Below, one piece after another: positions 1-16,143 of a DNA stretch of 64,000 nucleotides. This stretch comes from an uncultured Acidobacteriota bacterium (GTDB taxonomy: Bacteria > Acidobacteriota > Thermoanaerobaculia > UBA5066 > Gp7-AA6). How positions within the stretch are numbered: position 1 is the stretch's first letter; each line of letters opens with the position of its first letter. Both the position numbers and the translations under genes were made by a program. The notes below the pieces were generated by a model. That model was not told where the DNA came from and did no database searches. It worked only from the letters and a program-made list of their open reading frames with translations. The stretch covers positions 663,504-727,503 of the forward strand of contig CAWJYL010000002.1 of assembly GCA_963847075.1 (NCBI GenBank), given 5' to 3'.

Positions 1-731
1 AAGGGCAGGCTCTCGACGAGCGACTCCGGCCGAAACGGAGCGACCTGGTAGACCGGCTCGTCCCCGAGCACCGCGCGCACCACGACCGTCGAGACCACGG
101 CCGAAACCACCGCTGGCCCGAAGAGCGCCATCGAGAAGGAGCCGACGACCACCTCGAGCACGAAGAGTGTGGCCGCGATCGGCGTGTTGTAGGCGCCCGC
201 GACGCCGGCCGCCATGCCGCAGGCGGTGAGGATGCGTACGCGCTCCGGCGAGACCTTCCACCGCCTCGCCAGCGCGGAGGCGAACGCGGCCCCGATCTGG
301 ATGATCGGGCCCTCGCGGCCCTCCGAGCCGCCGGTCGAGATCACCGCAAGCGAGGAGGCGCCGCGCGCGAGCGACGGACGCAGACGCACGGTGCGCCGGC
401 CGAGCGAGACGACTTCGATCATGTGGGAGATCCCGCTCGGCCCCCGCTCGCCGAAGAAGAAGAGCGCGATCAGGCCTCCCACGAGGCCTCCCGCGGCGGG
501 CAGCAGGATCCGGGCAAGCGGCGCCAGGGCCTGCGCGCCCCGCACGACGTCGCGCGCCCCGATCAGCGCATCCGTCAGCCAGTGCGTGAGAAATCGGAAC
601 GCGATCGCACCGAAGCCGCCAAGAAGCCCCGCGACGGCCGCGAGAATGAGGAACTGGGTATTGGGATCCCGCCAGAAGAAGCGGCCGAACCGGGAGGGCC
701 GCGACGGGGCCTGGGGTTCAGGCGCGCTCAT
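1..731 (-). CDS. ClC-family voltage-gated chloride channel (N-terminal part; gene continues past window start)
   Basis: The reverse-strand translation from the ATG at 731 reads MSAPEPQAPSRPSRFGRFFWRDPNTQFLILAAV... It contains the ClC signature motifs GERGPSGIS (GSGIP-like), GSEGREGP (GREGP) and GAYNTPIAATLFVLE. It is not in the ORF track because it runs off the window edge; the overlapping + ORF 214-936 is Arg-rich antisense noise. Confidence 0.8.
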   Translation of the reverse strand, partial: MSAPEPQAPSRPSRFGRFFWRDPNTQFLILAAVAGLLGGFGAIAFRFLTHWLTDALIGARDVVRGAQALAPLARILLPAAGGLVGGLIALFFFGERGPSGISHMIEVVSLGRRTVRLRPSLARGASSLAVISTGGSEGREGPIIQIGAAFASALARRWKVSPERVRILTACGMAAGVAGAYNTPIAATLFVLEVVVGSFSMALFGPAVVSAVVSTVVVRAVLGDEPVYQVAPFRPESLVESLP

Positions 732-1006
732 TCCCCATCTTCGATCCGGCCGAGGTCCGATTCATCCTCGACGTCTTCCTGGCCCCCCAAAAAGAAGGCG
801 TGCGCGCACGGCTTCCCGCAGAAGATGTTGCCCCCCATGCGGACGACGCAGGCCTCGCAGACGGACTTGTGGCAGGTCTGGCACTGAGGCAGCGCATAGC
901 CCAGATCCTGGCCGCAAGCCGCGCAATGATCCTTGAAGCCGGCCACGCAGAAAGTATAGGCCCGGCATTGGCGGACCTCTGCCTCCCGCCGGTCTTTTGC
1001 TATCAT
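728..1006 (-). CDS. small Cys-rich (multi-CxxC, zinc-ribbon-like) protein, translationally coupled to the ClC channel
   Basis: The 92-aa ORF carries CAAC, CQTC, CEAC and CGKPC motifs. Its TGA stop (728-730) overlaps the ClC ATG (729-731) as ATGA. No clear Shine-Dalgarno sequence precedes it, and its codon bias is only moderate. Confidence 0.35.
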   Translation of the reverse strand: MIAKDRREAEVRQCRAYTFCVAGFKDHCAACGQDLGYALPQCQTCHKSVCEACVVRMGGNIFCGKPCAHAFFLGGQEDVEDESDLGRIEDGE

Positions 1007-1019
1007 CCGCGGTCCCGAA

Positions 1020-1096
1020 GGCGGTGTAGCTCAGCTGGTCAGAGCACGCGGCTCATATCCGCTAGGTCCGGGGTTCAAATCCCTGCACCGCCACCA
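1020..1096 (+). tRNA. tRNA-Met (anticodon CAT; elongator type, or possibly the lysidine-modified tRNA-Ile2)
   Basis: A cloverleaf is readable: acceptor GGCGGTG/CACCGCC, D-arm GCTC/GAGC, anticodon loop CTCATAT (CAT), T-arm CGGGG-TTCAAAT-CCCTG, and an encoded CCA. The anticodon stem is not initiator-like. Confidence 0.9.
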
Positions 1097-1262
1097 AACT
1101 TCGCCAACCGTGGAGGCCTTTCGTGGCCGACTGTCTGCGCCAGACCCCCCGACTGTCTGCAGCGCGCTTCTCGAATTCGTCGCGATCTCTGATCGCCCCG
1201 CGATGACCGTCGCGGATCACTTCCCGCCGGCGACGAGCTTTTGGAACCTCGGGTTCTTGGCA
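1068..1262 (+). repeat. att-like unit A: tRNA-Met 3' half plus about 165 nt downstream; the full-length member of a repeat family also seen at 10104, 12198 and 12722
   Basis: Direct nucleotide comparison: ccctgcaccgccaccaaa(c/t)ttcgccaaccgt(g/c)gaggcc... recurs downstream, as does the segment atcacttcc.ccggcgacgagc...aacctcgggttctt.gc. Confidence 0.7.
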
Positions 1263-1478
1263 TCGTGTCGAAGGGTGGGGCCGGTAGCCCTGATCGGCAC
1301 CTCGAGGCTGCTACCTGCCGTGCCGCTGACCTAACCGATCAATGCCGCGATGCCGGCAAAGCCGGCGCTCGCCACGACGTACCACCAAGCCGTGCATCGG
1401 TTCTTGGCTGCCCATTACCCTCCCCGTCGTGGAAGGTGAAGGGGCGGTCCAGACGCCTCCGAGCGCTGCGCCACTGGA

Positions 1479-2480
1479 TCACGTTACGAAGCGTCCCCTC
1501 GATTGAGAACTCGCGGGCGTCGCCCCACTTTCTCTGCGAAGAAATCGCCCCAGGCCGACTCTCCAATAGCCCGCAAGTTGTCCAAGCGATCCCAACCAGC
1601 CGAGTTCCTGATGAAAGACTCCCGGCTGCCTCAGCAGCATCGAGCCCACGAGTTTCCAGAAACCCGTGAAGCATGAGCGGTATAGCCCAAGCGGTGCACC
1701 AAGGAACGAGCGTCGACGGACAACGGGTGCCACGCGCGCTCTGCCCTCGGCTTCGTCGAACGTCAGTTTGCGAAAATACGCCTTTCGCATCCGGTCCGGG
1801 CCGATCCGATGGAAGACCGTGGGCGCGGCGTCATAGGCGATCTTCAAACCGGACTCGAGGGCTCGATTGATCAGGTCGATCTCTTCACCTCGGAAGAGCT
1901 TCTTACCGACAATGCCTCGCCGCGGGTCGAATCCTCCAACTCTTTCGAAGAGTTCGCGGCGGAAGGCCATGTTCGCGCCCCACACCTGCGGCTGCCGTGC
2001 CAGAGGAAGCGTAAGTAGGCCGCTTGCTTCGAAGTCCATGATCGCCAGACCGGCCAACAGGCTCCGGTTCGCCGTGAGCCACGGTGGCGGCGAGGCTTCC
2101 CACCGCGGAAGAATCCGACCGCCGAGGCCCTGCGCGTTCCAGCGGTCGATCGCCGCGGCTACCTGGGCGATCCAATTCGGCGCCGGGAGCACGTCGTCGT
2201 CGGTGAATGCGATGAGGGAGCCCCGAGCCTCCCGGATGCCTCGATTCCGGGCATGGGAAAGGCCCCGTCGAGGCTCGAACGCGTAGCTCACGCGGGCAGC
2301 CACGGCTTTCGAGAAAGCGGTGACTACCTGTGGCGTCGCGTCGCGCGAGTTGTTGTCGACGACGATGATTTCCCACTCCAGAGAGTCAGGCACCTCTTGC
2401 GAAGCGAGCGCCTCGAGGGTTCCTTCGAGCAGGCGCGCGCGGTTGTAGGTTCCGATTACTACGCTCACCTGCATCGTCAT
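1479..2480 (-). CDS. family 2 glycosyltransferase
   Basis: The N-terminus reads VSVVIGTYNRARLLEGTLEALASQ...IIVVDNNSRD...AFTDDDV, which is classic GT-A/GT2. The start was chosen at MTMQ (GGGAGGG lies upstream); ORF-track start 2522 is an alternative. Confidence 0.85.
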   Translation of the reverse strand: MTMQVSVVIGTYNRARLLEGTLEALASQEVPDSLEWEIIVVDNNSRDATPQVVTAFSKAVAARVSYAFEPRRGLSHARNRGIREARGSLIAFTDDDVLPAPNWIAQVAAAIDRWNAQGLGGRILPRWEASPPPWLTANRSLLAGLAIMDFEASGLLTLPLARQPQVWGANMAFRRELFERVGGFDPRRGIVGKKLFRGEEIDLINRALESGLKIAYDAAPTVFHRIGPDRMRKAYFRKLTFDEAEGRARVAPVVRRRSFLGAPLGLYRSCFTGFWKLVGSMLLRQPGVFHQELGWLGSLGQLAGYWRVGLGRFLRRESGATPASSQSRGRFVT

Positions 2481-2629
2481 CAGACCTTCGGGGTTCCCTC
2501 CCGGCGTCGCGCTCGCCGCCATGTTACCGAAACCTCGTTGCTTCGCCGGCAGGCCTGGCTGCGCAAGCTGGGCGCTGCGTCGTTTGCGTTAGACTCAATC
2601 ATGGGGGATTAACGATCGCGCGTCCACGA

Positions 2630-4252
2630 GTGCTGGCCATCGGCCTCGATGGCCTGGAAGTCACTCTCGCCGAGCAGCTCATGAACGCGGGCGAGATGCC
2701 GGCGCTGGACCAGTTACGTCGGCGGGCCGCGAGCTTCCGGCTCGACCACGGTCCTGCTCAGCGCACGGGGCTGGCGTGGGAACACGTCGCTTCGGGGTTT
2801 TCGCCGGAGGCCTGCCGCCGTTGGGCCGCGGTGGAATTCGATCCGATCGCCTACGCCGCGTGGCAGGAGGGCGCTCGGTTCACGCCGTGGTGGGCCGGTC
2901 GCAACCAGCGCGTCGTCGTGTTCGACACGCCCTACGTGGACTTACGCCGCGCGCGCAACACGCGAGGCATCGTGGGTTGGGGGGCGCACGATCCGGGGAC
3001 GGTCATCGCCGGCCGCCCGCGCGGACTGCTGGCTGAGTTCGAAAGCCGGTTTGGCGGCTATCCCGCATCGCAGTGGACGTATGGATTGCCGTGGCCCTCC
3101 CCGGCCCGCACACAAGCGATGGGTGAGAGCCTCAGCCGAGCCCTGGACACTCGCTCGCGTGCGGCGCAGTGGTTCGCGACAGAGCGGCTCCCGGACTGGG
3201 ATCTCTTCATCGCCGTTTCTGGCGAGGCACATGGTGCAATCGAAGGGCTTTGGCACGGCGTGGACGCGAGCCACCCGTATCACGGCCATCCCGCGGCGGC
3301 CGCCGCGGGCCGGGCACTACGGGAGGTGCATCGCGCCCTGGATCGAATGGTCGGTGAGCTCGTCGCCGCCGCGGGCGATGCGGCGGTTGTCGCGTTCACC
3401 ATGGGCGGCATGGGACCGAACCACTCGGACGTCCCGTCCATGGTCCTCCTGCCGGAGTTGCTTTACCGGCACGCCTTTGGTCACGCGCTGCTCACCGTAC
3501 CGTCACAGTGGACAAAAGCGCCGGGCAACGTGCCGGTCCTGGGAGAGGAGGAGAGCTGGTCGGGTGCGAGTCGGACGTGGATGCCAACGCACCCGGAAAA
3601 TTCAAGGCCTTCCTCCTCCGGAACACTTGTGTCGCTCGCGCGGCTCCTGCCACGGCCCGTCAAGTCGGTGCTCAGAGCGGTTCGAGCCGCGGCAGTGAAC
3701 AGGCACGCGAACGGCGCACCGATGGCGCGACGGGAGCTCGACTGGCAGCCGGCCCTTCGTTACCGACATCACTGGCCTCAGATGCCGGCATTCGCACTGC
3801 CCTCGTTCTACGACGGGCGCATCCGCATCAATCTGCGGGGGCGCGAGCGGGAGGGCATCATCGAGCCCTCACGCTACGAGGAAACGTGTCGAGAGCTCGA
3901 GATCCTGATCCGAGAGTGTCGTGACCCGCGCACGGGGGAAGCGGTGGTGGAGACCATCGAGCGTGCGTGGACCCGAGACCCTCTGGCCCTGACGGGCTCC
4001 GAGGCCGACCTGCTCGTCGTTTGGCGGGGTATTGCCGCCGCGCTCGAGCATCCGCGCCTGGGCCTGATCGGGCCAGTACCGCTCAGACGGACCGGCGGGC
4101 ACACCGGGCGGCACGGGATGGCCTACGTTGCGGCGCCGGGTCTGGAACCAGGCGACCGCGGCGTGCGGTCGGCATTCGATGTTGTCCCGACACTGGTAAA
4201 ACTGCTGGGAGACCAGACGCCCGCTCATCTCAGTGGGAAAAGCCTCGTGTGA
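2630..4252 (+). CDS. alkaline-phosphatase-superfamily protein (type I phosphodiesterase / nucleotide pyrophosphatase-like)
   Basis: It begins VLAIGLDGL (GTG start), typical of the Phosphodiest family, and has a C-terminal GGHTGRHGMAY metal-ligand region. Confidence 0.6.
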   Translation: MLAIGLDGLEVTLAEQLMNAGEMPALDQLRRRAASFRLDHGPAQRTGLAWEHVASGFSPEACRRWAAVEFDPIAYAAWQEGARFTPWWAGRNQRVVVFDTPYVDLRRARNTRGIVGWGAHDPGTVIAGRPRGLLAEFESRFGGYPASQWTYGLPWPSPARTQAMGESLSRALDTRSRAAQWFATERLPDWDLFIAVSGEAHGAIEGLWHGVDASHPYHGHPAAAAAGRALREVHRALDRMVGELVAAAGDAAVVAFTMGGMGPNHSDVPSMVLLPELLYRHAFGHALLTVPSQWTKAPGNVPVLGEEESWSGASRTWMPTHPENSRPSSSGTLVSLARLLPRPVKSVLRAVRAAAVNRHANGAPMARRELDWQPALRYRHHWPQMPAFALPSFYDGRIRINLRGREREGIIEPSRYEETCRELEILIRECRDPRTGEAVVETIERAWTRDPLALTGSEADLLVVWRGIAAALEHPRLGLIGPVPLRRTGGHTGRHGMAYVAAPGLEPGDRGVRSAFDVVPTLVKLLGDQTPAHLSGKSLV

Positions 4253-4562
4253 GCTGACGATACTGTCCCTTGCGCTCTTCGATGCTGTCCTGGCGGGCGC
4301 TCGAGCTTGTAAGGCGCAACATGACTTAGACAGCCCATGCGGGGAGGGCAAACGAAGCGCAACCTTCTGTCTAGGACGCCGAGGGTGGGGAGATAGGCTG
4401 CGGCCGGCGCCGTCCAATTCGCCTCCGAGCCGCAAACGCAGTCGGTTGCTCATCGGCTGCAGCCGATGATACGCCCCGCCCCGAGACGGCAACTGTCAGC
4501 GACTTTGTCAGTGGACTCCCCGTTCTCTTGCCGTCACTTAGGCCCGTCCGGGTCTCCCGCTC

Positions 4563-4595
4563 CACAAAAGAAAAGCGCCTGATTTCTCAGGCGCT
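4563..4595 (-). terminator. Rho-independent terminator for kinase gene 4771-7368
   Basis: A perfect 9-bp stem, agcgcctga / tcaggcgct, with a tttc loop. On the minus strand it is followed by TTTTCTTTTGTG. Confidence 0.55.
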
Positions 4596-4770
4596 TGAGA
4601 CAAGAAGCCACGGGGAGAGACCAATCCCTCTGCGAGGCGGGTGCGCGGCAGAGAGGACAATTTCGCCAATCCAGCTATATTCACGACGAAGCCGACCTTC
4701 AACGAGGCAAGCCGACCGATTGAGCGACCGGACTTTCCTCGTGGGCGCTCGGATCTCGTTCTGACGCGGG

Positions 4771-7368
4771 TCATGGGCGCAATCCTGCGGCACTCAGCCC
4801 CACCGTCCAGTTCTGGATGAGCGTCATCGGCGCCACGCGCGCCTCCTTGTCGGGAACGACCATCAGGAAGCGCTGGCCGTCGGGCGAGACGTCGAAGTCC
4901 GTCGACGGCCAGCGGAAGAGCGGCCGGGGTGACCCCGTCTCGAGCTTCGATCCCGACACCCGGACGTCCACCGCCACGACATCGCCGTCGTCGGAGAGGT
5001 AGAACAGCTCCTTGCCGTCGCGCCGCCAAACGGGGTGGTAGGCTCCGCCGGTCGTGACCTGCCACCGATCTCCCGGACCGGGAAACGGAAGCACGTAGAT
5101 CTCGGCGTTGCCCGATTCGCGTGACCAGTACGCGACCCATCGCCCGTCGGGAGAGAACCGCGCCCCTCCGACCGGCGACTTCGCGCTCAAGAATGGATAG
5201 GGCTTTCGGTCCCCGAAGAGCGGCAAGACCGAGAGATTCGAACCGTCACCCTGGTAGAGGAGGAAACGGCCGTCCGGAGACCAGTCGGTCGCAAACAGTT
5301 GCTTCTCGGTATGGAGAAGGAGCCGCTCCTCCCCGGCGCCGCTCGAGTCCTTGACCGTGAGATCGCCCTGCCCGGTGCGAGTCGACGTGAAGACGATCTG
5401 GCGCCCGTCCGGCGACCAGACCGGAAGCTGGTCGTCGTACTCGCCGGAGGTCACGCGCGTTGCAATGCCGCGCGAGAGATCGTGGACCCAGAGGTTGTTC
5501 GGGCTCTTCGCATCCTCGGTCTGAACAGCCACCTTCCTTCCATCTGGGGACAAACGCGGGAACCCATGTTCGCCGGGCGACCCCACGGAGCCGACCTCCC
5601 GCCCGGACCGGTCGAACCAGGCCATCTTCGTGGATTCACCGTGGGCCGGCAGATAGGCAAGAAGCTCGGGCCCCGCTGCGGAGAAGCCGGGCTGCCCCTT
5701 GCCCCCGAAACCGTAGACTCCCTCCGCCACGGGAATGGGCGCACCCGAGAACCGGAGGCTGCCAGCATCGAAAGGCTGCGCGACGAGCATTCGGGAGGCG
5801 TTGACGAAAAGCAGATACCCCGGCGGCGCAAAGAGCGCGCTCGAATTGGCTCGGACGAGAAGCTTCGTCTCCGACGAATCGAGCGAACCGATGAAGACTG
5901 CATTGTCCCGGTCGCCGGTCGTCGTCATGGAGAGGAACAGAAAGTGGCGCCCGTCGGGAAGGAAGCTCGGCCACCGATGGCTGTTCTCCTTGCGCACCGG
6001 ATCGAGCCGCGTGACAGCGGCCGGCTCACCGCCGGAGGCCGGCACCCGGGAGATCGGCGTCAGGGGGCCGGGAGCAAACAGGATGACCCCCTCCCGATTC
6101 CAGGTTCCGCCGCGGCCACCGGCTCGAACATCGCATAGCGTCTTCGGTGTGCCGCCGCTCGGCTCGACCGAAAGGAGCTTCTCCCAGGAGAAGAACCCGA
6201 GCATCCTTCCATCCGGCGACCAGAACGGATTCTGGGCGCCGTTCATCCTGGAAAGCTGCCGCGCCTCCGGCTGTGCGAGGAACCGGATCCAGAGCTCGAG
6301 GTTCTCCGCAGCGTCTCTGGCCCCGAAGGCGACCTGTCTTCCGTCCGGCGAGACCGCGACCTCTCCCAGGCTGAACGTCCGGCCCTCGGGCGGAAGAAGC
6401 GAGGTGCGCACGATGGGGGCGGGCGGTGTCCGCGATAGCCGGAGCCAGGCCGCGGCGATGGCGGCGCCGATCGCAATGCCGCCGAGCAAGATGAAAGCCG
6501 CGCGGAGACGGCGGGACGGGGGCCGGGCAGACGCGGCTACCGCGACGGAGCCTCCGGACAGGGTCCCTTCCGAGATGCCGTCGCGCAGGCGCGCCAGATC
6601 CCGAGCCAGATCGCGCGTCGAGGCGTAACGCTCCTCCGGATCCTTGGCGAGGCATCGCTCGATCGCCCACCGCAGCGGCACCGGCGTCTGGGGCGCGGCC
6701 GCGGAGATCGCCGCAGGCTCCTCGCGAATGATCGCCGCCAGCGTCTCCGGAGCGTTGCCTCGGGCAAACGCGCGCTCGCCTGTCGTCATCTCGTAGAGGA
6801 TCGATCCGAACGAGAACTGGTCCGACCGGAAGTCCAGCGCCTTTCCCAGAGCCTGTTCGGGCGACATGTAGCCGACCGTCCCCATCACGATTCCCGGCTC
6901 CGTTCCCGCGGACACCGTGGGTGAATGCGTCTCTTGCCCCTCGGGCGCGTCCGGCTGAGTCAGCTTTGCGAGGCCAAAGTCCAGGATCTTCACGAACCCG
7001 TCCTTCGTGACCATGACGTTCTCGGGCTTCAGGTCCCGATGCACGATGCCGGCGCCGTGCGCCTTGGCGAGCCCGTCGGCCACTTGCGCCGCGATCGCGA
7101 GGATCTTCTTCGTCGGCAGAGCCCCGGCGGCCAGAAACTCCCGCAGCGTCTGCCCGTCTACCATTTCCATCGCAATGAAGGACGTTTGGCCCGACTCGCC
7201 GATGTCGTGGATCGTCACGATATTCGGATGATTGAGAGACGACGCCGCTCGCGCCTCTTTCTCGAAGCGCTTCAACCGATCGGGATCTGCGGACACGCCG
7301 GCCGGCAACACCTTGACGGCGACCTCCCGCGAGAGCCGCGTGTCCCGGGCCCGGTAGACTTCCCCCAT
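4771..7368 (-). CDS. Ser/Thr protein kinase with C-terminal TolB-like (PD40/WD40-like) beta-propeller repeats (K1)
   Basis: It carries HRDLKPENVMV and DFGLAKL. After a TM segment, the C-terminus has repeated SPDGR / FSPDGR blades. The ATG lies inside the G-loop (LGAGGMGEVY); the frame is open upstream to a GTG at 7511, so the true start is probably upstream of 7368. Confidence 0.85.
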   Translation of the reverse strand: MGEVYRARDTRLSREVAVKVLPAGVSADPDRLKRFEKEARAASSLNHPNIVTIHDIGESGQTSFIAMEMVDGQTLREFLAAGALPTKKILAIAAQVADGLAKAHGAGIVHRDLKPENVMVTKDGFVKILDFGLAKLTQPDAPEGQETHSPTVSAGTEPGIVMGTVGYMSPEQALGKALDFRSDQFSFGSILYEMTTGERAFARGNAPETLAAIIREEPAAISAAAPQTPVPLRWAIERCLAKDPEERYASTRDLARDLARLRDGISEGTLSGGSVAVAASARPPSRRLRAAFILLGGIAIGAAIAAAWLRLSRTPPAPIVRTSLLPPEGRTFSLGEVAVSPDGRQVAFGARDAAENLELWIRFLAQPEARQLSRMNGAQNPFWSPDGRMLGFFSWEKLLSVEPSGGTPKTLCDVRAGGRGGTWNREGVILFAPGPLTPISRVPASGGEPAAVTRLDPVRKENSHRWPSFLPDGRHFLFLSMTTTGDRDNAVFIGSLDSSETKLLVRANSSALFAPPGYLLFVNASRMLVAQPFDAGSLRFSGAPIPVAEGVYGFGGKGQPGFSAAGPELLAYLPAHGESTKMAWFDRSGREVGSVGSPGEHGFPRLSPDGRKVAVQTEDAKSPNNLWVHDLSRGIATRVTSGEYDDQLPVWSPDGRQIVFTSTRTGQGDLTVKDSSGAGEERLLLHTEKQLFATDWSPDGRFLLYQGDGSNLSVLPLFGDRKPYPFLSAKSPVGGARFSPDGRWVAYWSRESGNAEIYVLPFPGPGDRWQVTTGGAYHPVWRRDGKELFYLSDDGDVVAVDVRVSGSKLETGSPRPLFRWPSTDFDVSPDGQRFLMVVPDKEARVAPMTLIQNWTVGLSAAGLRP

Positions 7369-7617
7369 CCCGCCCGCCCCGAGCGGCGCCAGGATCTCGT
7401 AGGGACCGAGACAGGTTCCGGCTGAGAGTGCTATCGGATCACCGCTGCGCGGATTCTACGTCGCGGGGAGACCAGCGTCGGCAGCCTTCCCGGAAGCCTC
7501 CGGTGAGCCACATTCGCTGTCGGAAGGGCTTGTCCGCTTCCGCCCCGCCCTTAACTCGGTCGTCGTATGCCCTTGAAGTCCTGGGCATGGATGGCCCGGT
7601 TTCCGTCTCGCCGGAGG

Positions 7618-8556
7618 CTAGTCCACATTCGGGATCTTCACGATGCTGCCCTTCGCCTTCGGGTCCCTTGGATCCTTCACCACGGTCACGTACAGATCCT
7701 TCCCGCCCTCGCCGAAGGCCACGTTTGTCGGGCCTTCTCCCGCCGTGATCTCGAATACGTGCAACAGCTTGCCCTCGGCGGAGAGCTTCAGGACCTTGCC
7801 GCCGGTCCACTGGGCGACATAGACGTTGCCCTTGCGGTCGATCTTCATGCTGTCGGGTCCCAGCCACCATGATACGACCTTGTTCTTCACGAGGAGATTG
7901 AGCAACGCGAAGTTCGATCTCTTGCCAAGCGAGCCGTCATCGTTGATCGAGAACTTCAGGATGCAGTTTCCGACGGTTTCACTGACGTAGAGGGTCTTCT
8001 GATCCGGGGAGACGCCTATGCCGTTGGCGTGATTGAGGTCTCCTGCAACCTCCACCCATTCCTGGCTGCCCGGTGCGAGATAGACGATTCTCCCGATCAC
8101 CAACGTCGGTGGCTCCGCGTTGTTGGTGTAGTGGCCGAAGATCGTGGCATATGCACCGCCGTTGGCGCACACCACGATGTCGTTGATGCCCCCGTCGAAC
8201 GGTTTGCCGTTGCTGTCGGCGTCCCAGCGCCGCAGCTGCTTGCCCCTCATGTCGACCTCGAGAATCGCACCGTGGTCGCTGCAGGCGATCAAGAAGGTCT
8301 TCTGCTTGGTCAGCGCCAGTCCGTTGTGGCCGCAACCCGGGGTTTCGTTGAGAACCGTGCTCGTCTTGCCATCCCACTTGGACAGCGTATTCGAGACCCA
8401 GCCGACGTAGTAGAGATTGCCGTCAACGTACAATGGACCCTCCGCACCGAGAACGTCGCTCACGACTGTAGCTTCGGCGGCACGGGCTGACGTGGCGACC
8501 ATTAACGCGCTGACGGCGAAGCAGAAGATTGTGATCGACCTCATGCGGATTCCCAT
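7618..8556 (-). CDS. secreted SMP-30/gluconolactonase/LRE-like six-bladed beta-propeller protein
   Basis: It has a signal peptide and an SGL-like repeat pattern. GC content is visibly lower than in its neighbours. Confidence 0.65.
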   Translation of the reverse strand: MGIRMRSITIFCFAVSALMVATSARAAEATVVSDVLGAEGPLYVDGNLYYVGWVSNTLSKWDGKTSTVLNETPGCGHNGLALTKQKTFLIACSDHGAILEVDMRGKQLRRWDADSNGKPFDGGINDIVVCANGGAYATIFGHYTNNAEPPTLVIGRIVYLAPGSQEWVEVAGDLNHANGIGVSPDQKTLYVSETVGNCILKFSINDDGSLGKRSNFALLNLLVKNKVVSWWLGPDSMKIDRKGNVYVAQWTGGKVLKLSAEGKLLHVFEITAGEGPTNVAFGEGGKDLYVTVVKDPRDPKAKGSIVKIPNVD

Positions 8557-8811
8557 TTTGCTGTCGACGGAACATCGTGCCGAGATTCAGGCAGAACATC
8601 AAGTTGTTCGTCCCTTTCGGGCAAATGTGAAGGTGGCCCTTCTTGTCCGGGAGCTTTGCTTCAGACCGCCAAGGACGTAGACATTGGAGTGTCGATTACG
8701 ACGCACGTGCGTGTGATCGCCTGTCGATCCTCTCCCCTTCGAACGACGCAGAGGGGGCGTGCATCACGCGTCCACGGGACGCCAGAACCGGAGCTGCTTC
8801 CTCGACCTCGC

Positions 8812-10047
8812 CTAGCCGCTCCGTCTGATCGCGTGCAACCCTGCAAGCGCGAGAGCCAGCCCGAGTACCACCAAGAGGTTCGTCGAAAGGGTAGGTACCA
8901 CCGCCTGCGATCCCGGCCCGGGCGTCGGCGTCGCCCCCGGCGGCGGTGTGGACGTGACGGTCGGAGTCGGTGTCCCCGTTGGTCCAACCGCCGGACCAAG
9001 GTCCGTCACGACGACGTCGTTGCCGGTGCCACCCAGGTAGGTGATCTGGTAGCTCCGCCCATTTTGAACGAACGTGGCACCCTCCGACAGCCCGGAGAAG
9101 GTCCCGGTGACCGCGCCGCCGCCCGTGTCGTTGACGATCGTGAACGCGTTGCCGGTGGAGGAGGTGAAACCCCAGGCAAGCACGAGCGTCGCTCCGCCCA
9201 GACTCACGCTGCCGGATGCATTCACCTGGCCGTAATTGCTGGCGCTGTACATGGCCATGAAGAGCGTCGAGGCCGACTGCAGCGTCAAATCCGTGACGTT
9301 GCCGATCTGGCTCGTACCACCGCCCTCGCATCCCACGGTCCCGCCGCTGGCGGTGACCGGACCCGTCGATGCGCCGTTGGCGAACTGGAGAAGACCGCCG
9401 CTCACGGTCACGGCGCTCGCCGAAGCCAGGCTGGAACCCGCCAGGACAAAGTCTCCGGCGGTAATGTCGGTCGGTCCCGTGTACGTGCACGACGCGACGA
9501 TGAACACGACCCCGAGACCGGAGGAGGTCACACCGCCGGTCCCCGAGATCACGCCGTTCTGATTGATGACGCTGCCGCCTGCCGAATTGAACGTCAGCGT
9601 GAAGGCTCCGAGACTTACACCGCCGGAAATGATGAGACGGTCGACCGCGCTGGGGATCGAGCAGGAAAACGTCTGCGACGCTGTGAGCGTGACTCCCAGC
9701 TGGATGGTGTCGGTGCCCGCAGTGTTGGTGGCGCTGATCCCCGCCACCAACTGAATGGCGTTCCCCGAGAGCGTGTAGCCGCCGCTCGAGCCCGTGAAGC
9801 TGATCGTGTTGAAGGACGTGTTCGCGGCGAGGTCATTGCTGGGGGACAGGCGAGGGGTCCCCCCGGGGAACACCAGGTCATCACCCGCGCTCGGCGCCGT
9901 TCCTCCCCAGTTGGCTGCCGTGCTCCAGTTGTCGTCCGCGCCGCCCCCCGTCCAAGTCCTGGTGGCGGCCTGGGCTGCCGTCGTCGGCACCAGGATTCCG
10001 AAGAACACCAACCCAAGAAACAGGCGAGTACGCCTCGGCACGCGCAT
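8812..10047 (-). CDS. secreted beta-helix protein with autotransporter-associated beta-strand repeats and an IPTL-CTERM-like C-terminal sorting tail
   Basis: A signal peptide is followed by TWTGGGADDNWSTAANWGG..P..D.L.F repeats and a Pro/Thr-rich linker. The tail ...VVPTLSTNLLVVLGLALALAGLHAIRRSG is a motif + TM + basic-tail arrangement. Confidence 0.7.
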   Translation of the reverse strand: MRVPRRTRLFLGLVFFGILVPTTAAQAATRTWTGGGADDNWSTAANWGGTAPSAGDDLVFPGGTPRLSPSNDLAANTSFNTISFTGSSGGYTLSGNAIQLVAGISATNTAGTDTIQLGVTLTASQTFSCSIPSAVDRLIISGGVSLGAFTLTFNSAGGSVINQNGVISGTGGVTSSGLGVVFIVASCTYTGPTDITAGDFVLAGSSLASASAVTVSGGLLQFANGASTGPVTASGGTVGCEGGGTSQIGNVTDLTLQSASTLFMAMYSASNYGQVNASGSVSLGGATLVLAWGFTSSTGNAFTIVNDTGGGAVTGTFSGLSEGATFVQNGRSYQITYLGGTGNDVVVTDLGPAVGPTGTPTPTVTSTPPPGATPTPGPGSQAVVPTLSTNLLVVLGLALALAGLHAIRRSG

Positions 10048-10103
10048 GACTGCCCTCCGGAGGGAGCAGAATCATCGGAAGCATAACATCCTCTCGGATC
10101 TCG

Positions 10104-10168
10104 CTCCCTGCACCGCCACCAAATTTCGCCAACCGTCGAGGCCCTTCCTGGCCGGCTGCCTGCGGCGC
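10104..10168 (+). repeat. att-like repeat B: copy of the tRNA-Met 3' end (16 nt) plus about 45 nt of downstream sequence
   Basis: ccctgcaccgccaccaaatttcgccaaccgtcgaggcccttcctggccggctgcctgcggcgc matches 1081-1145 at about 85% identity. Confidence 0.7.
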
Positions 10169-10307
10169 GCATCGCGCTTGGTGATCGGCGTACGATGCCC
10201 CGCACGCGCCAACCGGCGTAGGGTATCCGGCTCGGGCGCGGCGAAATCCTGACCTGCTTCGTGACCGCTCGGTGCCATGATATTGTCGATAAGTCTCGTG
10301 GAGGCGT

Positions 10308-12185
10308 ATGACGTCCTCGCGATGGCTAAGGCTCTCTCTCACGGTGCTCACGGCTGGAGTTTCAGCTTGGGTCAACGCTGCTACCGGCTACATCCAGATT
10401 AACCTGGTGTCCGACATTCCGCTCGTCGCGGCCCATACGGACTCCAACCTGGTAAATCCCTGGGGAATGGCGTCCAGCGCAACGTCCCCGATCTGGGTTT
10501 CCGACAACCGCACGGGCGTTGCTACTCTCTACAACGGCTCTGGCATCGCGCTCGGCCTCGTAGTCTCGATTCCGAAGCCCGGGGGCGGTGCTTCGCCGGG
10601 CGCGCCAACCGGGATCGTTTTCAACTCGACGAGCGACTTCTCTTCCGACCGCTTCATCTTCGCGACGGAAGACGGAACGATCGCCGGATGGAGTGGCGGA
10701 ACGACCGCATCCCTCGAGGTCGACGACTCGGGCTCCGGCGCGGTCTACAAGGGCATCGCCCTCGGCAACAACGGGACGGCCAACTTTCTCTATGCAACTG
10801 ACTTTCATAACGGCGCCATCAGCGTCTTCGACAAAAACTTCACGCCCGTAACGCTCAGCGGCAGCTTTACCGATCCAAATCTTCCCGCTGGTTTTGCTCC
10901 CTTTGGGATTCAGAACATCGGCGGCATCCTGATCGTGACGTACGCCAAGCAGGACGCCGCCAAGCACGACGACGTTCCGGGCGCCGGCAACGGTTATGTC
11001 GACGAGTTCGACATGAACGGTAATTTTCTGAAGCGTCTCATCTCCGCCGGGGTGTTGAACTCACCATGGGGACTGGCGAAGGCGCCGGCTGGCTTCGGCG
11101 ACTTGAGCGGGGATCTGCTCGTCGGGAATTTCGGCGACGGCAGGATCAACACCTTCGACCCCTCGACGGGAGCGTTCCTCGATACTCTGAACGACAGTTT
11201 GGGAAATCCGATTGTCGTGCAAGGTCTCTGGGGCCTGCTGTTTGGTAACGGCGGTAACGGCGGCGCGCAGACCGAGTGTTTCTTCTCCGCCGGTATCCCT
11301 GGCTCCGGTAGCGTCGAGGACCACGGACTTTTCGGCAAATTCGCGCCGCGGATTCCAGATCTGACGATTGCGAAGACTCATTCGGGCGATTTCGCTCAGG
11401 GCCAGGTCGTGGTGACGTACTCCCTCGAGGTCACCAATAACGGCGGCGTGCCGACTTCCGGCACGATCACGGTCGTCGACACCTTGCCCGCGGGACTGAG
11501 CGCCACAGCCATGACAGGCTCCGGCTGGTCGTGCAATGTGGGAACGCTGACCTGCACCCGGTCGGACGCGCTCGGCGTCGGAGCGAGCTATCCCCCGATC
11601 ACGCTCACCGTCAACGTCGACCCGCAGGCCCCCGCGAACCTGACCAACACGGCGACGGTCAGCGGCGGAGGCGAAACCTTCACCACCAACGACACGGCCA
11701 CGGACCTGACCGCAGTGACACCGCCGATTCCCGACCTGACGATCGCGAAGACGCATTCGGGCGATTTGGCTCGGGGCCAGGTCGGGGCGTACTCCCTCGT
11801 CGTCACCAACAACGGTGCCTTGCCGAGTTCCGGCACAGTCACGGTCGTCGACATCTTGCCCGCGGGCTTGACCGCCACAGCGATGGCGGGCGCCGGCTGG
11901 TCGTGCAACGTGGGAACGCTGACCTGCACCCGGTCGGACGCGCTCGGCGTCGGAGCGAGCTATCCCCCGATCACGCTCACCGTCAACGTCGACCCGCAGG
12001 CCCCCGCGAGCCTGACCAACACGGCGACGGTCAGCGGCGGAGGCCAAACCTACACCGCCAACGACACCGCCGACGATCCGACGAGCGTGCTTACCTCCCT
12101 CCCGATCCCGACACTGCAACGGCCTCTTCTTGTTCTCTTGGGAATGCTCCTGGCGGCGACGGGCATCATCTTGCTTCGCCGCTGA
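10308..12185 (+). CDS. secreted DUF11 (conserved repeat domain) protein with an IPTL-CTERM-like tail
   Basis: It has a signal peptide, two 125-aa DUF11 repeats (LP.GL..TAM.G.GWSCNVGTLTCTRSD), and a C-terminal LPIPTLQRPLLVLLGMLLAATGIILLRR. Confidence 0.8.
   Translation: MTSSRWLRLSLTVLTAGVSAWVNAATGYIQINLVSDIPLVAAHTDSNLVNPWGMASSATSPIWVSDNRTGVATLYNGSGIALGLVVSIPKPGGGASPGAPTGIVFNSTSDFSSDRFIFATEDGTIAGWSGGTTASLEVDDSGSGAVYKGIALGNNGTANFLYATDFHNGAISVFDKNFTPVTLSGSFTDPNLPAGFAPFGIQNIGGILIVTYAKQDAAKHDDVPGAGNGYVDEFDMNGNFLKRLISAGVLNSPWGLAKAPAGFGDLSGDLLVGNFGDGRINTFDPSTGAFLDTLNDSLGNPIVVQGLWGLLFGNGGNGGAQTECFFSAGIPGSGSVEDHGLFGKFAPRIPDLTIAKTHSGDFAQGQVVVTYSLEVTNNGGVPTSGTITVVDTLPAGLSATAMTGSGWSCNVGTLTCTRSDALGVGASYPPITLTVNVDPQAPANLTNTATVSGGGETFTTNDTATDLTAVTPPIPDLTIAKTHSGDLARGQVGAYSLVVTNNGALPSSGTVTVVDILPAGLTATAMAGAGWSCNVGTLTCTRSDALGVGASYPPITLTVNVDPQAPASLTNTATVSGGGQTYTANDTADDPTSVLTSLPIPTLQRPLLVLLGMLLAATGIILLRR
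11351..12100 (+). repeat. intragenic tandem duplication, 2 x 375 bp (DUF11 modules)
   Basis: The two copies are about 90% identical overall, with a stretch of about 110 nt that is 100% identical. Confidence 0.85.
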
Positions 12186-12197
12186 GCTGCTGGACCG

Positions 12198-12310
12198 GCT
12201 GGCCGGCTGCCTGAGCTCTTGGGACGTCGCGAGATCTGATCGCCCAGAGCTGTCCGTCCCGAATCACTTCCGACCGGCGACGAGCCCTTGAAACCTCGGG
12301 TTCTTTGCGC
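12198..12310 (+). repeat. att-like repeat D: copy of the distal part of unit A (1125-1262)
   Basis: ggccggctgcctg...gtcgcgagatctgatcgccc...atcacttccgaccggcgacgagcccttgaaacctcgggttctttgc. Confidence 0.65.
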
Positions 12311-12361
12311 AGCGGGCCGAAGGGTCGATCTCGAGCCAGCCGGGCGAGAGGCAGTACGGGA

Positions 12362-12610
12362 TCAGCGAGCCGCGATCGGCCGCCCGCGCCAGGATGGGCT
12401 TCCCCACTCCGCGGCCTCGAGACGTTCCCATCTGCCATCCTGGTACCGCGAGACTTCGACGATCGAGCCGGGGGCGGGTCGTACGGCTTCGCACCGTGGG
12501 CACCGGAACTTGTACTTGCTGATGCCCCGGTTTGAGACAGAGTTCCACTGGACGCGGAGGGCGGTGCCGCAGACGCATTTCACGTCGGTGAGACGAATCC
12601 CCTGTTTCAA
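12362..12610 (-). CDS. possible small zinc-ribbon protein (TTG start)
   Basis: It contains C-x-C ... CPRC, with GGAGG just upstream of the TTG. It overlaps an alternative frame; support is weak. Confidence 0.25.
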   Translation of the reverse strand: MKQGIRLTDVKCVCGTALRVQWNSVSNRGISKYKFRCPRCEAVRPAPGSIVEVSRYQDGRWERLEAAEWGSPSWRGRPIAAR

Positions 12611-12721
12611 GAGCCTCCATTATACCTGTCCTTCGGTACAGGTAGGAAGGGCCTGTCGGCTCAATCGGGTCCGGCTGTCGGCGGCCCAGGCGGAGGCGAC
12701 GAGGTTAGCCCCCCCGGCGCG

Positions 12722-12813
12722 GGGGCCTTCAAATTCCTGCACCGTCACCACATTTCGACCAACTGAGGCCTTCGAGGGCCTGATGTGTGCCCGAAACCCC
12801 CGACTGTCCGCGG
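12722..12813 (+). repeat. att-like repeat C: copy of the tRNA-Met T-arm and acceptor 3' half plus downstream sequence
   Basis: gggggccttcaaattcctgcaccgtcaccacatttcgaccaac... corresponds to 1068-1160. Confidence 0.7.
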
Positions 12814-12885: not shown

Positions 12886-15390
12886 TCATTTCAGCCCCGT
12901 TACCAGAAACAGGTCATCCAGGGTGCGGCGGTATGAGTAGACGTAGGACTTGCCGTCCGGCGCAATGAGAATCGGGCCGACCGCAAGAACGCCGGCCGGA
13001 TCGGGCGGGACGATCTCTTTCCAGAACCGGCGCGCACCCGTGGCGGCGTCGCAGATCTCGACGCGCGCCGGCATCGCGATCCGGCCGACATAGAGCGAGC
13101 GGCTGTCCGCCGTCCAACCCCACGCGATCTCGCCCGAGGAGGCTCCCGGAAGCGGCCGCGGCGGCCCGCCTTCGATCACGCAGATGCTGATCTTGCGATC
13201 CGGATCCGTTGCTGCGACCATGCGGCCATCGGGGCTGATCGCCCGCCCGCCGAATGCGACGCCGTATCCCTCGGGTGTGATGGGTTGGGGCTTGCCCCCG
13301 TCGATTTCTTGAACGTAGAGCCGGCTTCTCTTGCCCGGCTCGCTCGCCCAGAGCAGAAGCCGCTTTCCATCGGGAAAGAAATACGCCCACTGGTAGAGAA
13401 GGCCGGTTTTCGCGAGCGGCTTCGGGCTGCCGGCCCCCGTCGGCACCAGGACGAGCTGCTCCGCATCGAGCCGCTGCGTCAGTGCCCAGCGGCCGTCGGG
13501 CGAGAGCGAATACCCCTTGGATTGCGCGAGCAGGACCGCGGGCGAGCCGTCGGTCTTGCGCAGGTAACAGAGATAGTTCTGCCGACCGCCGCTTTGCTCG
13601 TCGAAGAGCAGCGTGCGCCCGTCGTCGGACATGTCGTCGGGAAAGGACCAGTCGAGCCAGGTCAAGTTGCGCTCTCGGGGCTGGCCCTCCACGACACCGA
13701 CGATCTCGCGGCGATAGTTCGTCCGCTTCGCCAGCAGTCTTCCATCCGGGGCGATGTCCTCGGGTATGAAGCCGCCGGCGAGCGCGATCGAGGGACGCGC
13801 CTTGCCCGAAGAGGAGACGCGCTGCAGGACGCCTCCGCCCCCCATCACGACGTCGCCTCGCGGCGACCACGCAAATCCAGCGGTCCCGCCCACCATTGGC
13901 CCCTCCACCCGTGTGTGACGGACCACGTCGAAGATGACCAGGCGGCCGGCGTTGTCTCCCCTCTCGGGGTGGTCCCACACGGCGATGAACCGGCCGTCGG
14001 CCGAAACGCGCGGGTTGCTGAGCCAACCCGACGCCTCCGCGATCACCGTGCCGATCGGGTACTCCAGGCGCGGGCGATCGCCGATCCGGTGAATCGCCGC
14101 GAGCTCCTTGCCGTCGGGAGACCAGTCGGCACCTTCGACGTTCTCGAGCACCTCGCGCGGAGCTCCGCCGGCCACCGGAACGCGCGCCAGAAGGCCGGTG
14201 GACTCCCAGCCGATCAATGGATGCCAGCCGAGCGAAATCGCCAGCTCGCCCTGGCGCGACACGGAGAGCAGATTGGCCGGCGGAAGGCCGAGGGATTTCG
14301 ACTCCGGGCTCTCCGGCCGAGCCGTGAAGATTTCCGTTGGGCTTCCGTCCCATGCCGCGCCGTAGACCACCGCAACTCCGTCCGGGGCAAAGCGCGCCGT
14401 GACGACCGCGCCCCGGCGGAAGGTGAGCCTCTGAAAGATCGGCGGGGGCGGCTCGAAGAGCCGGAGGCTCTTTCCGACGACGAGCGCAACGACTGCTCCC
14501 GCGAAGAAGGCGAGAGCGGCCGGGAAAAGCCATCCGCGGCGGCGGGCCTTGGCGGGCCCGGCGACTTCGAGGGCGCCCGAGGCTGAGGTCTCGGTCAGGT
14601 GGTCGCGCACGCTCTTCAGCTCGCGTGCAAGGTCCTTGGACGAGGCGTAGCGTTCCTCCGGGTCCTTGGCGAGGCACCGCTCGACGATCCATCGCACGGG
14701 GGGCGGGGCCCTCGGAGCGAGCTGCGCCAACGGCTCGGGCTCCTCCCGGATGATCGCGACGAGCGTCTCGGCTCCCGACTTTCTCTGGAACGCGCGCTTG
14801 CCCGTGGCCATCTCGTAGAGGATCGCGCCCAGGGTGAACTGGTCCGACCGGAAATCCACGGGTTGGCCGCTCGCCTGCTCGGGTGACATGTAGCCGGCCG
14901 TGCCCATCACGGTGCCGGGCTGCGTCGGAGCGGCGATCGCCGTCGGCAGCACGGACGAATCCAGCGAGACGGGCTCGGTCAGCTTTGCCAGCCCGAAGTC
15001 GAGGATCTTGACGAAGCCGTCTTTGGAGACCATCAGGTTCTCGGGTTTCAGGTCCCGGTGGACGATTCCCGTGCCGTGCGCCTTGGCCAGCCCCTCTGCC
15101 GTCTGGACGGCAATGTCGAGAAGCCTTTTCGTCGGCAGCGGTTCGCCCGAGGCGAGGAGCTCGCGCAGTGTCTTGCCCTCGACGAGCTCCATGGCGATGT
15201 AGAGGGAGCCCTCGGCGTCGCCGATGTCGTAGATCGTCAGGATGTTCGGGTGGTTCAACGCCGAGGCGGAGCGCGCCTCCTGCTCGAAGCGTTGGCGGCG
15301 CTCGGGGTCCGACGACGTCTCCGCGGGCAGAACCTTGATCGCGATCTCGCGCCCGAGCTTCGCGTCCCGCGCCCGGTACACCTCTCCCAT
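12886..15390 (-). CDS. Ser/Thr protein kinase with TolB-like beta-propeller C-terminus (K2, paralog of K1)
   Basis: It begins MGEVYRARDAKLGREIAIKVLP and carries HRDLKPENLMV and DFGLAKL, then SPDG-containing repeats. An in-frame TAG at 15478-15480 lies 30 codons upstream, with no ATG, GTG or TTG in between. Confidence 0.85.
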   Translation of the reverse strand: MGEVYRARDAKLGREIAIKVLPAETSSDPERRQRFEQEARSASALNHPNILTIYDIGDAEGSLYIAMELVEGKTLRELLASGEPLPTKRLLDIAVQTAEGLAKAHGTGIVHRDLKPENLMVSKDGFVKILDFGLAKLTEPVSLDSSVLPTAIAAPTQPGTVMGTAGYMSPEQASGQPVDFRSDQFTLGAILYEMATGKRAFQRKSGAETLVAIIREEPEPLAQLAPRAPPPVRWIVERCLAKDPEERYASSKDLARELKSVRDHLTETSASGALEVAGPAKARRRGWLFPAALAFFAGAVVALVVGKSLRLFEPPPPIFQRLTFRRGAVVTARFAPDGVAVVYGAAWDGSPTEIFTARPESPESKSLGLPPANLLSVSRQGELAISLGWHPLIGWESTGLLARVPVAGGAPREVLENVEGADWSPDGKELAAIHRIGDRPRLEYPIGTVIAEASGWLSNPRVSADGRFIAVWDHPERGDNAGRLVIFDVVRHTRVEGPMVGGTAGFAWSPRGDVVMGGGGVLQRVSSSGKARPSIALAGGFIPEDIAPDGRLLAKRTNYRREIVGVVEGQPRERNLTWLDWSFPDDMSDDGRTLLFDEQSGGRQNYLCYLRKTDGSPAVLLAQSKGYSLSPDGRWALTQRLDAEQLVLVPTGAGSPKPLAKTGLLYQWAYFFPDGKRLLLWASEPGKRSRLYVQEIDGGKPQPITPEGYGVAFGGRAISPDGRMVAATDPDRKISICVIEGGPPRPLPGASSGEIAWGWTADSRSLYVGRIAMPARVEICDAATGARRFWKEIVPPDPAGVLAVGPILIAPDGKSYVYSYRRTLDDLFLVTGLK

Positions 15391-15691
15391 CCCACCCGCG
15401 CCGAGCGGCGCGAGGATCTCGTAGGGGCCGAGACGCGAGCCGGCTGGGAGTGCTATCGGATCACCACTGCGCGGATTCTATGCTGTGAGCGGGCGCGCCC
15501 TTTGACTCAGCGCCAAACGGTCAGCGCGATTTGTCGGTGCCTCCTGGCGAGCATTCGAGCGCGATGTCGGCACAGAGTTGAAATCCGGTTTCGCAGGCGC
15601 TGGACTAACGGCACGGCGCCCACCAAGTCTCCCTCACGAGAAATTCTCCGGCGAGTGCACCCGGAGTCCGCTTCCGTCTCCCCGCCTGGGC

Positions 15692-15952
15692 CTACGCCAT
15701 CTGGCCTCCGGTCGGCTTGCGAACGCGTGCGAACCGAAGAGCCCAGCGCAGAACATGCGTCGTGGCGATGAGCAAGAGCGATCCACCGGCCACTCCGACC
15801 GGCACCAGCCACCAGCCCAGGACGTCCCGCGCTCCGGGGTTGCCTGTCACGCCGATCACGAAGGAAGTGTTCGGGCCAACCCACGCGCCAATACCGGTCA
15901 GCCCGCGCGATTTGTTGACCCGATATGCGCGGACAGGGCGAGGTCCGGCCAA
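15692..15952 (-). pseudogene. remnant of an FtsX/ADOP-type permease C-terminus
   Basis: The 86-aa ORF shows ...GARDVL...GVAGGSLLLIAT... resembling the FtsX C-terminal domain of the intact permease at 20022-22506. It has no N-terminal part and is isolated in a 650-bp gap. Confidence 0.35.
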
Positions 15953-15960
15953 TTAAGGGT

Positions 15961-16007
15961 CAGCAGAAAAGGAAAAGGCGCTGGAGACCCAAGTTTCCGA
16001 GCGCCTT
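15961..16007 (-). terminator. Rho-independent terminator downstream of the 16144-16449 gene
   Basis: The stem aaggcgct / agcgcctt is followed on the minus strand by TTTTCCTTTTCTG. Confidence 0.45.
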
Positions 16008-16143
16008 AGTGCCGGACGGTTTCGGCGCGTGAGGCGACCCGTGAGGCCACGACGGAGAGATCACGAATGCAGGGCTGACCCCGAACTCCAATTACGAGAG
16101 TTGCCCGGATCCGGCCCGCGATTTTGATCTGAGCGGCGATCCC

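Follow-up and report, generated by a model that had tools for sequence, protein, structure and literature searches.

The first 16 kb of the 64,000-nt stretch of uncultured Acidobacteriota DNA analysed here (contig CAWJYL010000002.1; the window) hold an intact tRNA-Met(CAT) gene followed by displaced copies of its own 3' end. We interpret this array as the probable outcome of tandem accretion of integrase-less islands, resembling cis-mobilizable elements (CIMEs), at a tRNA-Met attachment site by tyrosine-integrase-type recombination. A sequence-only reading of the same DNA had proposed att scars left by nested or tandem islands lacking an integrase, and this proposal is borne out by relatives with an insert-free site, by the abutment of unrelated sequences at the T-loop, and by a terminal attR in relative L003 that is followed by the chromosomal flank of relative L012.

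The recombination core extends from the T-loop to the CCA end (1074-1097, 24 nt), the T-loop being the 7-nt TTCAAAT with its first base at 1074. The last 17-24 nt of the tRNA are repeated at 10105 and 12734 on the same strand as the tRNA, and each of these tail copies has homologous downstream sequence attached. The 17-mer TCCCTGCACCGCCACCA, present at 1080, recurs without a mismatch at 10105 and with 2 mismatches at 12734; with 0.27 matches expected by chance and none of 100 shuffles reaching three, the repeats described in the sequence-only reading (units A to D) are real. Alignment with blastn and a repeat finder gave 90% identity between unit B and unit A (10105-10164 versus 1080-1139, E=5e-18), 81% between unit D and unit A (12225-12325 versus 1178-1276, E=8e-22) and 75% between unit C and unit A (12728-12811 versus 1074-1160, E=9e-9). 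Displaced tRNA 3' fragments in direct orientation downstream of the intact gene are thus found at 10105, at 12734 and, as a relic, near 4621. Every core copy in the window is found in the 12 kb that follow the tRNA, and the other 48 kb have none. The parts of the array are as follows.

1020-1096, plus strand: intact tRNA-Met(CAT), acting as attL (ARAGORN, Rfam).
1097-1216, plus strand: spacer of unit A, an element-borne P' arm, with CCGACTGTCTGC direct repeats at 1127-1138 and 1149-1160.
1217-1283, minus strand: relic of the 3' end of a kinase-TPR gene, ending ...AKNPRFQKLVAGGK before the stop codon (translation; matches the C-termini in relatives CAWERV4 and L003).
4492-4672, plus strand: unit E, very decayed, directly 3' of the Ser/Thr kinase gene K1 (blastn, hairpin match, terminator scan, sequence).
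10105-10197, plus strand: unit B, with a 17-nt core, the T-loop lost, 5/24 mismatches, and the two motif repeats collapsed to one.
12192-12363, plus strand: unit D, with no core, running from a P' motif repeat into a kinase-TPR 3' relic on the minus strand that ends ...AKNPRFQGLVAGRK before the stop codon.
12725-12813, plus strand: unit C, with T-loop and core (3/24 mismatches) and a diverged P' arm.
15937-16020, plus strand: hairpin segment with homology to the P arm; no core follows, and nothing further of the array is recognisable beyond it.

Relatives were gathered by a pattern scan of one genome per species (185,579 species genomes) and from nine loci anchored on the CLC protein encoded next to the tRNA. 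About 246 kb of their DNA was examined, as 8-21-kb pieces, making 310 kb together with the window. The species-genome scan returned eight matches, all in metagenome-assembled genomes (MAGs) of Acidobacteriota, with several contigs holding 2-4 copies; wherever the context is visible, the match lies at the tRNA-Met locus. A metagenome scan added one further locus. The tRNA itself is 100% identical in four relatives. One homologue bears the name Thermoanaerobaculia. Array-bearing relatives include CAWATD01, CAWERV01, CAVXRK01 and ENA ERZ25039490 contig_18344, and the MAGs of the relatives derive from Microflora Danica samples.

The search for an empty site, suggested by the sequence-only reading, found five relatives without an extra copy of the tRNA tail (L011, L012, L015, L017 and L018) and occupied sites in others. 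In three of the five (L018, L015 and L017) the backbone is bare, CLC - tRNA - tilS - hpt - ftsH - DinB - folP, and tRNA and tilS are 0.1-3.4 kb apart as against 26 kb in the window (tblastn). On the 4.1-Mb contig of L012, the chromosomal flank actctgccgatgcc... comes directly after the tRNA and is followed by FA_hydroxylase and ketosynthase genes. L003, which is about 90% identical to L012, carries three cores, with the L012 flank and the same genes after the last of them; this terminal copy is a textbook attR. Similarly, L013 has two perfect cores, with PKD and YfhO+ATP-grasp genes as cargo, and beyond the last core a flank and genes of the L012 type. L014 has one core, placed after an arsenic-resistance-like block, and L010 a single 2.9-kb kinase-TPR module with a truncated core at its end. 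The module of L014 that adjoins the tRNA (7591-9646) encodes an ArsR-type HTH protein, a glyoxalase, a MIP channel and a low-molecular-weight phosphatase.

Arrays or further copies were present in seven relatives, most with perfect 24-nt cores. In CAWATD (L006 and L001, which are contiguous), the tRNA has three more full units behind it, at 4.0, 6.2 and 6.8 kb, as well as fragments. CAWERV4 has three units in L008 and L004, and the tRNA locus of the same MAG is L007, in which the CLC gene is 90.6% identical to that of the window, the first segment is different and a further tRNA tail lies 4.6 kb on. Cargo is completely different between genomes. In the relatives with a bare site the tRNA(CAT) adjoins tilS, the gene for tRNA-Ile lysidine synthetase (27118-28008 in the window, about 8500-9709 in L018), and given this neighbour the 'tRNA-Met' might be a tRNA-Ile2(CAU).

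The joints have a consistent anatomy. Partial copies in the window and the relatives run from the T-loop through the 3' acceptor strand and CCA, and mostly start at the equivalent of unit A position 1074 (+/-4 nt; range 1066-1080). This start at the T-loop holds for most copies in 10 genomes despite unrelated left flanks, unit B being an exception. It places the fragment boundary at a canonical crossover sublocation (T-loop or T-stem), as in the Islander definition; a T-loop with its symmetric stem is one of the canonical sublocations used by tyrosine integrases (bioRxiv 10.1101/2020.11.02.365908; PMC4383910), an assignment that these two sources trace to Williams 2002. The partial copies number at least 14 and fall into at least six unrelated classes of left flank, nearly all of which abut at the T-loop, and in L003 two copies are nothing but the 24-nt core, neither flank being related to those of other copies. 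These properties point to independent site-specific crossovers; a single duplication event cannot give unrelated flanks that abut at the T-loop together with copies of the core alone. Within the partial copies, the mismatch rate is 3.4% for the core and 11.8% for the 37 nt beside it (p=1e-4, Fisher test). The core is perfect in 13 of the 14 partial copies from relatives, and those of units B and C in the window are the most decayed of all.

To the right of the core lies a P' arm of about 80-120 nt with two direct CCGACTGTCTGC repeats, 22 nt apart. Across the window and the loci of the relatives this motif is confined to the units, and the repeats are candidate arm-type binding sites. The P' spacer keeps 95-99% identity across species in which the CLC gene and intergenic region stand at only 77-92%, and it is not present in insert-free genomes, which argues that it is not native tRNA flank. 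A native origin had been suggested by locus L009 and was ruled out by the quite different flanks of the insert-free genomes. The spacer RNA folds no better than shuffled sequences (z=0.12) and forms no stable structure, and Rfam gave no family match in the spacer or downstream flank of the tRNA. What is conserved is therefore most probably the DNA sequence itself. A structured RNA or an attC-like hairpin in the spacer was dropped as a candidate in view of this fold score. The distal part of the unit (A 1217-1283) represents the last ~14-22 codons of a Ser/Thr-kinase-TPR gene on the minus strand. Its counterparts in relatives end ...KNPRFQKLVAGAN in CAWERV4, where the gene is intact (926 aa), and ...SNPRFQKLVARRK before the stop codon in an open reading frame (ORF) of L003.

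A P arm of about 135 nt is conserved to the left of many cores in four genomes, including the window. Its elements are ACTGTCAGCGAyTTTGTCAG, the terminator-like hairpin AAAGCGCCYGATTTCTCAGGCGCTT, and cggACAGTgacgggcag. It occurs twice in CAWATD, once in L002, twice in L013 and at 4492-4627 of the window, with a partial copy at 15937-16020. The ACTGTC motif keeps fixed offsets, +49 and +71 on the right; on the left it stands in direct orientation at -125 to -149 and inverted at -40. P arm, core and P' arm together thus give an internal joint the size of an attP, about 250 nt.

Unit E was absent from the list of units in the sequence-only reading. Its class-I P arm occupies 4492-4627, its core (about 4621-4633) is decayed, and the opening stretch of a P' arm is present as aatttcgccaatcc at 4659-4672. 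The P arm is 75% identical to that of L013 over 136 nt (blastn, E=1e-17), its hairpin has an exact 25 nt in common with L001 and L013, and a terminator scan located a minus-strand terminator hairpin inside it at 4573-4596. This apparent terminator of K1 lies beyond the decayed att core, so kinase transcripts would include, within the 3' untranslated region, a sequence complementary to the tRNA 3' end, in the manner of a primer-binding site.

Unit B extends to about 10197, equivalent to about 1205 in unit A. As had been noticed from the sequence, B and D share the variant ggccggctgcctg, which falls within the exact 15-mer CTGGCCGGCTGCCTG. The two overlap by about 60 nt in unit coordinates and are about 60% identical there outside the 15-mer. 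Because of this overlap they are two unit copies and not one split unit, and the earlier suggestion that the DUF11 gene between them had landed inside a single older unit is not supported; insertion of that gene into one unit with target duplication was rejected on account of the overlap and the low identity within it. The P' arm of unit C ends 73 nt before the stop codon of a second kinase gene, K2. The terminal trace at 15937-16020 is 86% identical to L006 6097-6180 (blastn), and this counterpart abuts a core in CAWATD. The trace in the window may be a decapitated terminal attR. CAWERV4 has the same hairpin, without a core, before the orthologue of gene Y (see below).

No gene for the responsible enzyme was found with the array. 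The sequence-only reading had reported no recombinase near the tRNA, and Pfam searches extend this result, with no recombinase domain in any of about 60 long ORFs across the 64-kb window. The same was true for 20 ORFs of relatives and for the precomputed Pfam families of nine loci. A box-II motif scan detected no tyrosine integrase, and tblastn with a phage tyrosine integrase gave no match at E<=5 in the 310 kb of window and loci. Among viral contigs there were no matches for the patterns of the unit, its distal part or the P-arm hairpin. One phage contig, L019, does encode a PF00589 tyrosine integrase; 125 nt away is a 31-nt stretch identical to the T-arm-to-CCA sequence of this tRNA, with no tRNA present, indicating that this sequence is a real integrase target. 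The att arms of L019 are unrelated to those of the arrays, and its DNA is AT-rich, which places it in a different host. The region concerned (1380-2490 of IMGVR_UViG_3300037474_000206) contains the tyrosine integrase gene, an apparent attP and then a gene for an RtcB RNA ligase.

Directly observed are the repeats and their boundaries at the T-loop, the sites with and without inserts, the conservation of the arms and the lack of an integrase; from these we infer that a tyrosine integrase made the joints and that it acts in trans. The tRNA-Met(CAT) gene beside the CLC gene would serve as the attachment site in a Thermoanaerobaculia-like lineage, with strand exchange in the 7-nt T-loop. Insertion would split the tRNA gene at this loop, the incoming DNA bringing a new T-loop-to-CCA end with its own P' arm (80-120 nt, CCGACTGTCTGC being present twice) and often, behind that arm, a convergent Ser/Thr kinase gene represented by its 3' end, and the old tRNA tail would be displaced downstream. 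Repeated insertions of related elements could then build the order tRNA - P' ... P - core - P' ... P - core - chromosomal flank. On this model unit A of the window would be attL, followed by E as a relic joint, B as a joint, D as a fragment without a core and C as a joint. Since the segments encode no recombinase, they would be integrase-less remnants or CIME-like modules whose enzyme works in trans or has been lost. The joints in the window are mutating away, and the array is for this reason probably no longer mobile.

Several observations weigh against accretion of this kind. The window has no recognisable terminal attR, and unit B lacks the T-loop. Neither an integrase gene nor a relic of one is present in about 18 att-delimited segments from nine array-bearing genomes, including the window, such that the integrase gene inside the island that the Islander definition calls for is missing, and no excision product or cognate enzyme was seen in the window or in the 8-21-kb pieces from relatives. 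Three joints in CAWERV4 have one common left flank, which implies that homologous unequal crossover also contributes. Finally, base composition is only mildly deviant. The comparison of GC and tetranucleotide profiles proposed in the sequence-only reading gave a lower GC content for the array (65.6% versus 68.1% for the backbone, with single genes down to 59.5%), but tetranucleotide correlations of 0.92-0.97 that are within the backbone's own range. So weak a deviation would fit exchange within the lineage.

The closest alternative is a more active version of the same process and not its opposite: living, integrase-free cassettes with complete attP-like joints would still move in and out of tRNA-Met, much as in an integron or a CIME, through a recombinase supplied by another part of the genome or by a helper element. 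We consider this possible but unlikely. In its favour are the perfect cores in relatives, a core significantly better conserved than its surroundings, and P and P' arms kept across species with fixed motif offsets; the modules are also small (0.65-9 kb, 1-5 genes), there is complete turnover of cargo among genomes whose flanking CLC genes are about 90% identical, and no integrase was found in any of the 18 or so segments. However, no candidate enzyme was identified and no circular or insert-free-site polymorphism was seen, the joints of the window are decayed (one of them to a relic), and conservation of the core could mean recent origin and not selection. On this possible but unlikely reading the arrays would be a living, lineage-specific platform for gene capture and a functional, tRNA-anchored analogue of integrons in uncultured Acidobacteriota, with ~250-nt joints (a P arm bearing ACTGTC-type repeats, the 24-nt core and a P' arm in which CCGACTGTCTGC occurs twice) and Ser/Thr kinases as a recurrent passenger. 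An origin without any site-specific recombinase, by segmental tandem duplication of a block of tRNA 3' end, spacer and kinase through unequal homologous or illegitimate recombination, followed by gene insertions, is less probable still. It would account for the paralogous K1 and K2 each following a unit, for the kinase 5' and 3' fragments scattered in arrays, and for three joints in CAWERV4 and one in CAWATD whose shared left flank is the region upstream of the kinase gene. This explanation is nevertheless largely refuted by the junctions, where at least six unrelated left flanks nearly all end at the T-loop and where core-only copies are present, and it leaves unexplained a spacer missing from insert-free genomes, cargo unrelated between genomes and the flank of the L012 insert-free site after the terminal copy of L003. 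The duplication of a module of att unit and kinase, as envisaged in the sequence-only reading, survives in part: a kinase does recur beside the P' arm, K1 and K2 directly follow units E and C, and the three same-flank joints in one relative suggest local duplication, but the diversity of left flanks and cargo speaks for independent recombination instead of one duplication.

Two further explanations are very improbable. Relatives in which the repeats have no association with the tRNA, or signs of a genome-wide family of repetitive extragenic palindromic (REP) sequences or miniature inverted-repeat transposable elements (MITEs) resembling the tRNA 3' end by chance, were looked for and not seen. 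Fragments of the distal unit do occur in both orientations in relatives, as such a family might, but they are C-terminal pieces of kinase-TPR genes. With no core copies in the other 48 kb of the window, all eight species-genome matches from acidobacterial MAGs at the tRNA-Met locus where context is visible, and no matches to the unit patterns in viral contigs, this family is already refuted for the window. It is equally hard to credit that reverse transcription of kinase transcripts, primed by tRNA-Met, laid down copies of tRNA tail plus cDNA. The minus-strand K1 terminator beyond the core, by virtue of which kinase mRNAs would hold a 23-nt complement of the tRNA 3' end, and the copy boundary in the T-loop could both be read in this way, but no reverse transcriptase was found in the window or loci, the segments contain multiple genes, in either orientation and together with the intergenic DNA, plus-strand genes follow many units, and conserved P arms stand upstream of the cores.

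Turning to the gene content, the cargo of the array and its neighbours in the window are as follows.

3-761, minus strand: CLC channel gene, upstream neighbour of the tRNA.
1479-2522, minus strand: GT2 glycosyltransferase gene of segment 1a (Pfam; 63.4% GC versus 68.1% for the backbone).
2630-4252, plus strand: alkaline-phosphatase-like phosphodiesterase gene of segment 1a, which spans 1479-4252 (Pfam).
4771-7455 (stop-to-stop ORF), minus strand: K1, Ser/Thr kinase with a PD40 beta-propeller (Pfam, translation, tblastn).
7618-8586, minus strand: SMP-30/gluconolactonase-like gene of segment 1b, which spans 7618-10086 (Pfam; 59.5% GC).
8656-10086: unannotated stretch of segment 1b.
10308-12185, plus strand: DUF11 surface-protein gene, cargo (Pfam).
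12886-15477, minus strand: K2, Ser/Thr kinase with a PD40-like C-terminus (Pfam, translation, tblastn).
27118-28583, plus strand: tilS and hpt, where the conserved backbone resumes (tblastn; gene tables of L015, L017 and L018; Pfam).

Cut at the joints A, E, B and C, the proximal ~15 kb falls into four segments (about 3.5, 5.4, 2.6 and 3.3 kb) that each contain one to three recognisable genes. Segments A-E, E-B and B-C are bounded by att sequences on both sides, and the last has no recognisable right-hand core. The cargo of segments 1a and 1b has no orthologues in the arrays of relatives. The kinases K1 and K2 are paralogues with PD40 propellers; each comes directly after a unit (E and C, respectively) and is convergent with the tRNA, the 3' end of K1 facing unit E, and their position relative to the unit is that of the kinase-TPR gene in relatives. 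A small zinc-ribbon-like ORF is also among the genes between the CLC gene and about 16 kb. The DUF11 gene contains a 300-nt tandem duplication (11409-11708 and 11781-12080; 90% identical, 372-nt period), presumably an internal domain repeat.

Beyond the array, the distal variable region between tRNA and tilS includes a third Ser/Thr kinase, with an N-terminal zinc ribbon (24045-26819, minus strand). Two minus-strand ORFs, Y (16144-16620) and X (16621-17247), are in one frame with a single stop codon between them, and their orthologues are separate in relatives, with X in L003 and L011 and Y in CAWERV4. Elsewhere in the window (57751-60000), a tRNA-Thr(CGT) gene is followed by a Kelch-like ORF whose third-position GC, 0.73, is lower than that of its neighbours and which might be a further tRNA-linked insertion.

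The locus provides a tRNA-anchored hypervariable site, with insert-free and occupied states, in an uncultured lineage of soil Acidobacteriota (Thermoanaerobaculia-like MAGs), where mobile elements are barely described. Its cargo across loci includes surface proteins, glycosyltransferases, kinases and arsenic-resistance-like genes. Finders that require an integrase, such as Islander, would miss arrays of this type. If the modules are mobilised in trans, the enzyme could be sought by way of the conserved arms, which would also serve to trace gene flow through these soil populations.

Tandem islands joined by accretion are known from Dehalococcoides, where 15 of the islands at ssrA lack an integration module and were read as cis-mobilizable (McMurdie et al. 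2011, PMC3146451). Those islands likewise sit in tandem at one small-RNA gene, with direct repeats of its 3' end, an insertion point in the T-loop, strain-specific cargo and, beyond the last repeat, a variable region that is older and fixed (PMC3146451). However, their target is a tmRNA and not tRNA-Met, and about half of them carry the serine recombinase DsiB, whereas here there is none in about 18 segments; the repeats of the present array also have 80-250 nt of conserved arms besides the core, and its modules are smaller. The CIMEs related to ICESt1 of Streptococcus thermophilus, as presented in PMC3146451 (citing Pavlovic et al. 2004) and PMC5704250, are similarly flanked by att sites, arranged in tandem at one site and devoid of recombination and transfer genes, and their mobilisation is ascribed to the integrase of a related element. 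For ICESt1, these accounts give a cognate integrative and conjugative element with its integrase, and excision was shown, whereas no autonomous partner was found here; the target and phylum as given there also differ from those of this array.

The islands of Prochlorococcus resemble the locus in being hypervariable next to specific tRNAs, with scattered partial tRNAs that successive integrations left behind, degenerate remnants and small cargo of an ecological type (Hackl et al., bioRxiv 10.1101/2020.12.28.424599). The tycheposons of that system carry a tyrosine or large serine recombinase and many have replication genes, Pfam domains that do not occur in the window or loci, and no counterpart of the conserved arms is described for them (bioRxiv 10.1101/2020.12.28.424599). 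Islands detected by Islander share the regenerated tRNA, the 3' fragment displaced in direct orientation and the T-stem/T-loop boundary, but the definition requires an integrase in each island, such that the present array would be filtered out; arrays of three or more islands were rare in that survey, with four cases (PMC4383910). Like integron arrays, the locus is a series of cassettes of one to five genes with a conserved site at the end and cargo that differs between strains. Unlike them, it has no intI, attI or Pc next to the array but a tRNA gene at its head with CLC upstream, its sites are armed copies of a tRNA 3' end instead of attC hairpins, and its genes lie in both orientations. The locus is therefore an instance of a known process, well supported but ordinary; what distinguishes it is the lack of a recombinase in about 18 segments from nine genomes, the long conserved arms, and the recurrent kinase beside the site.

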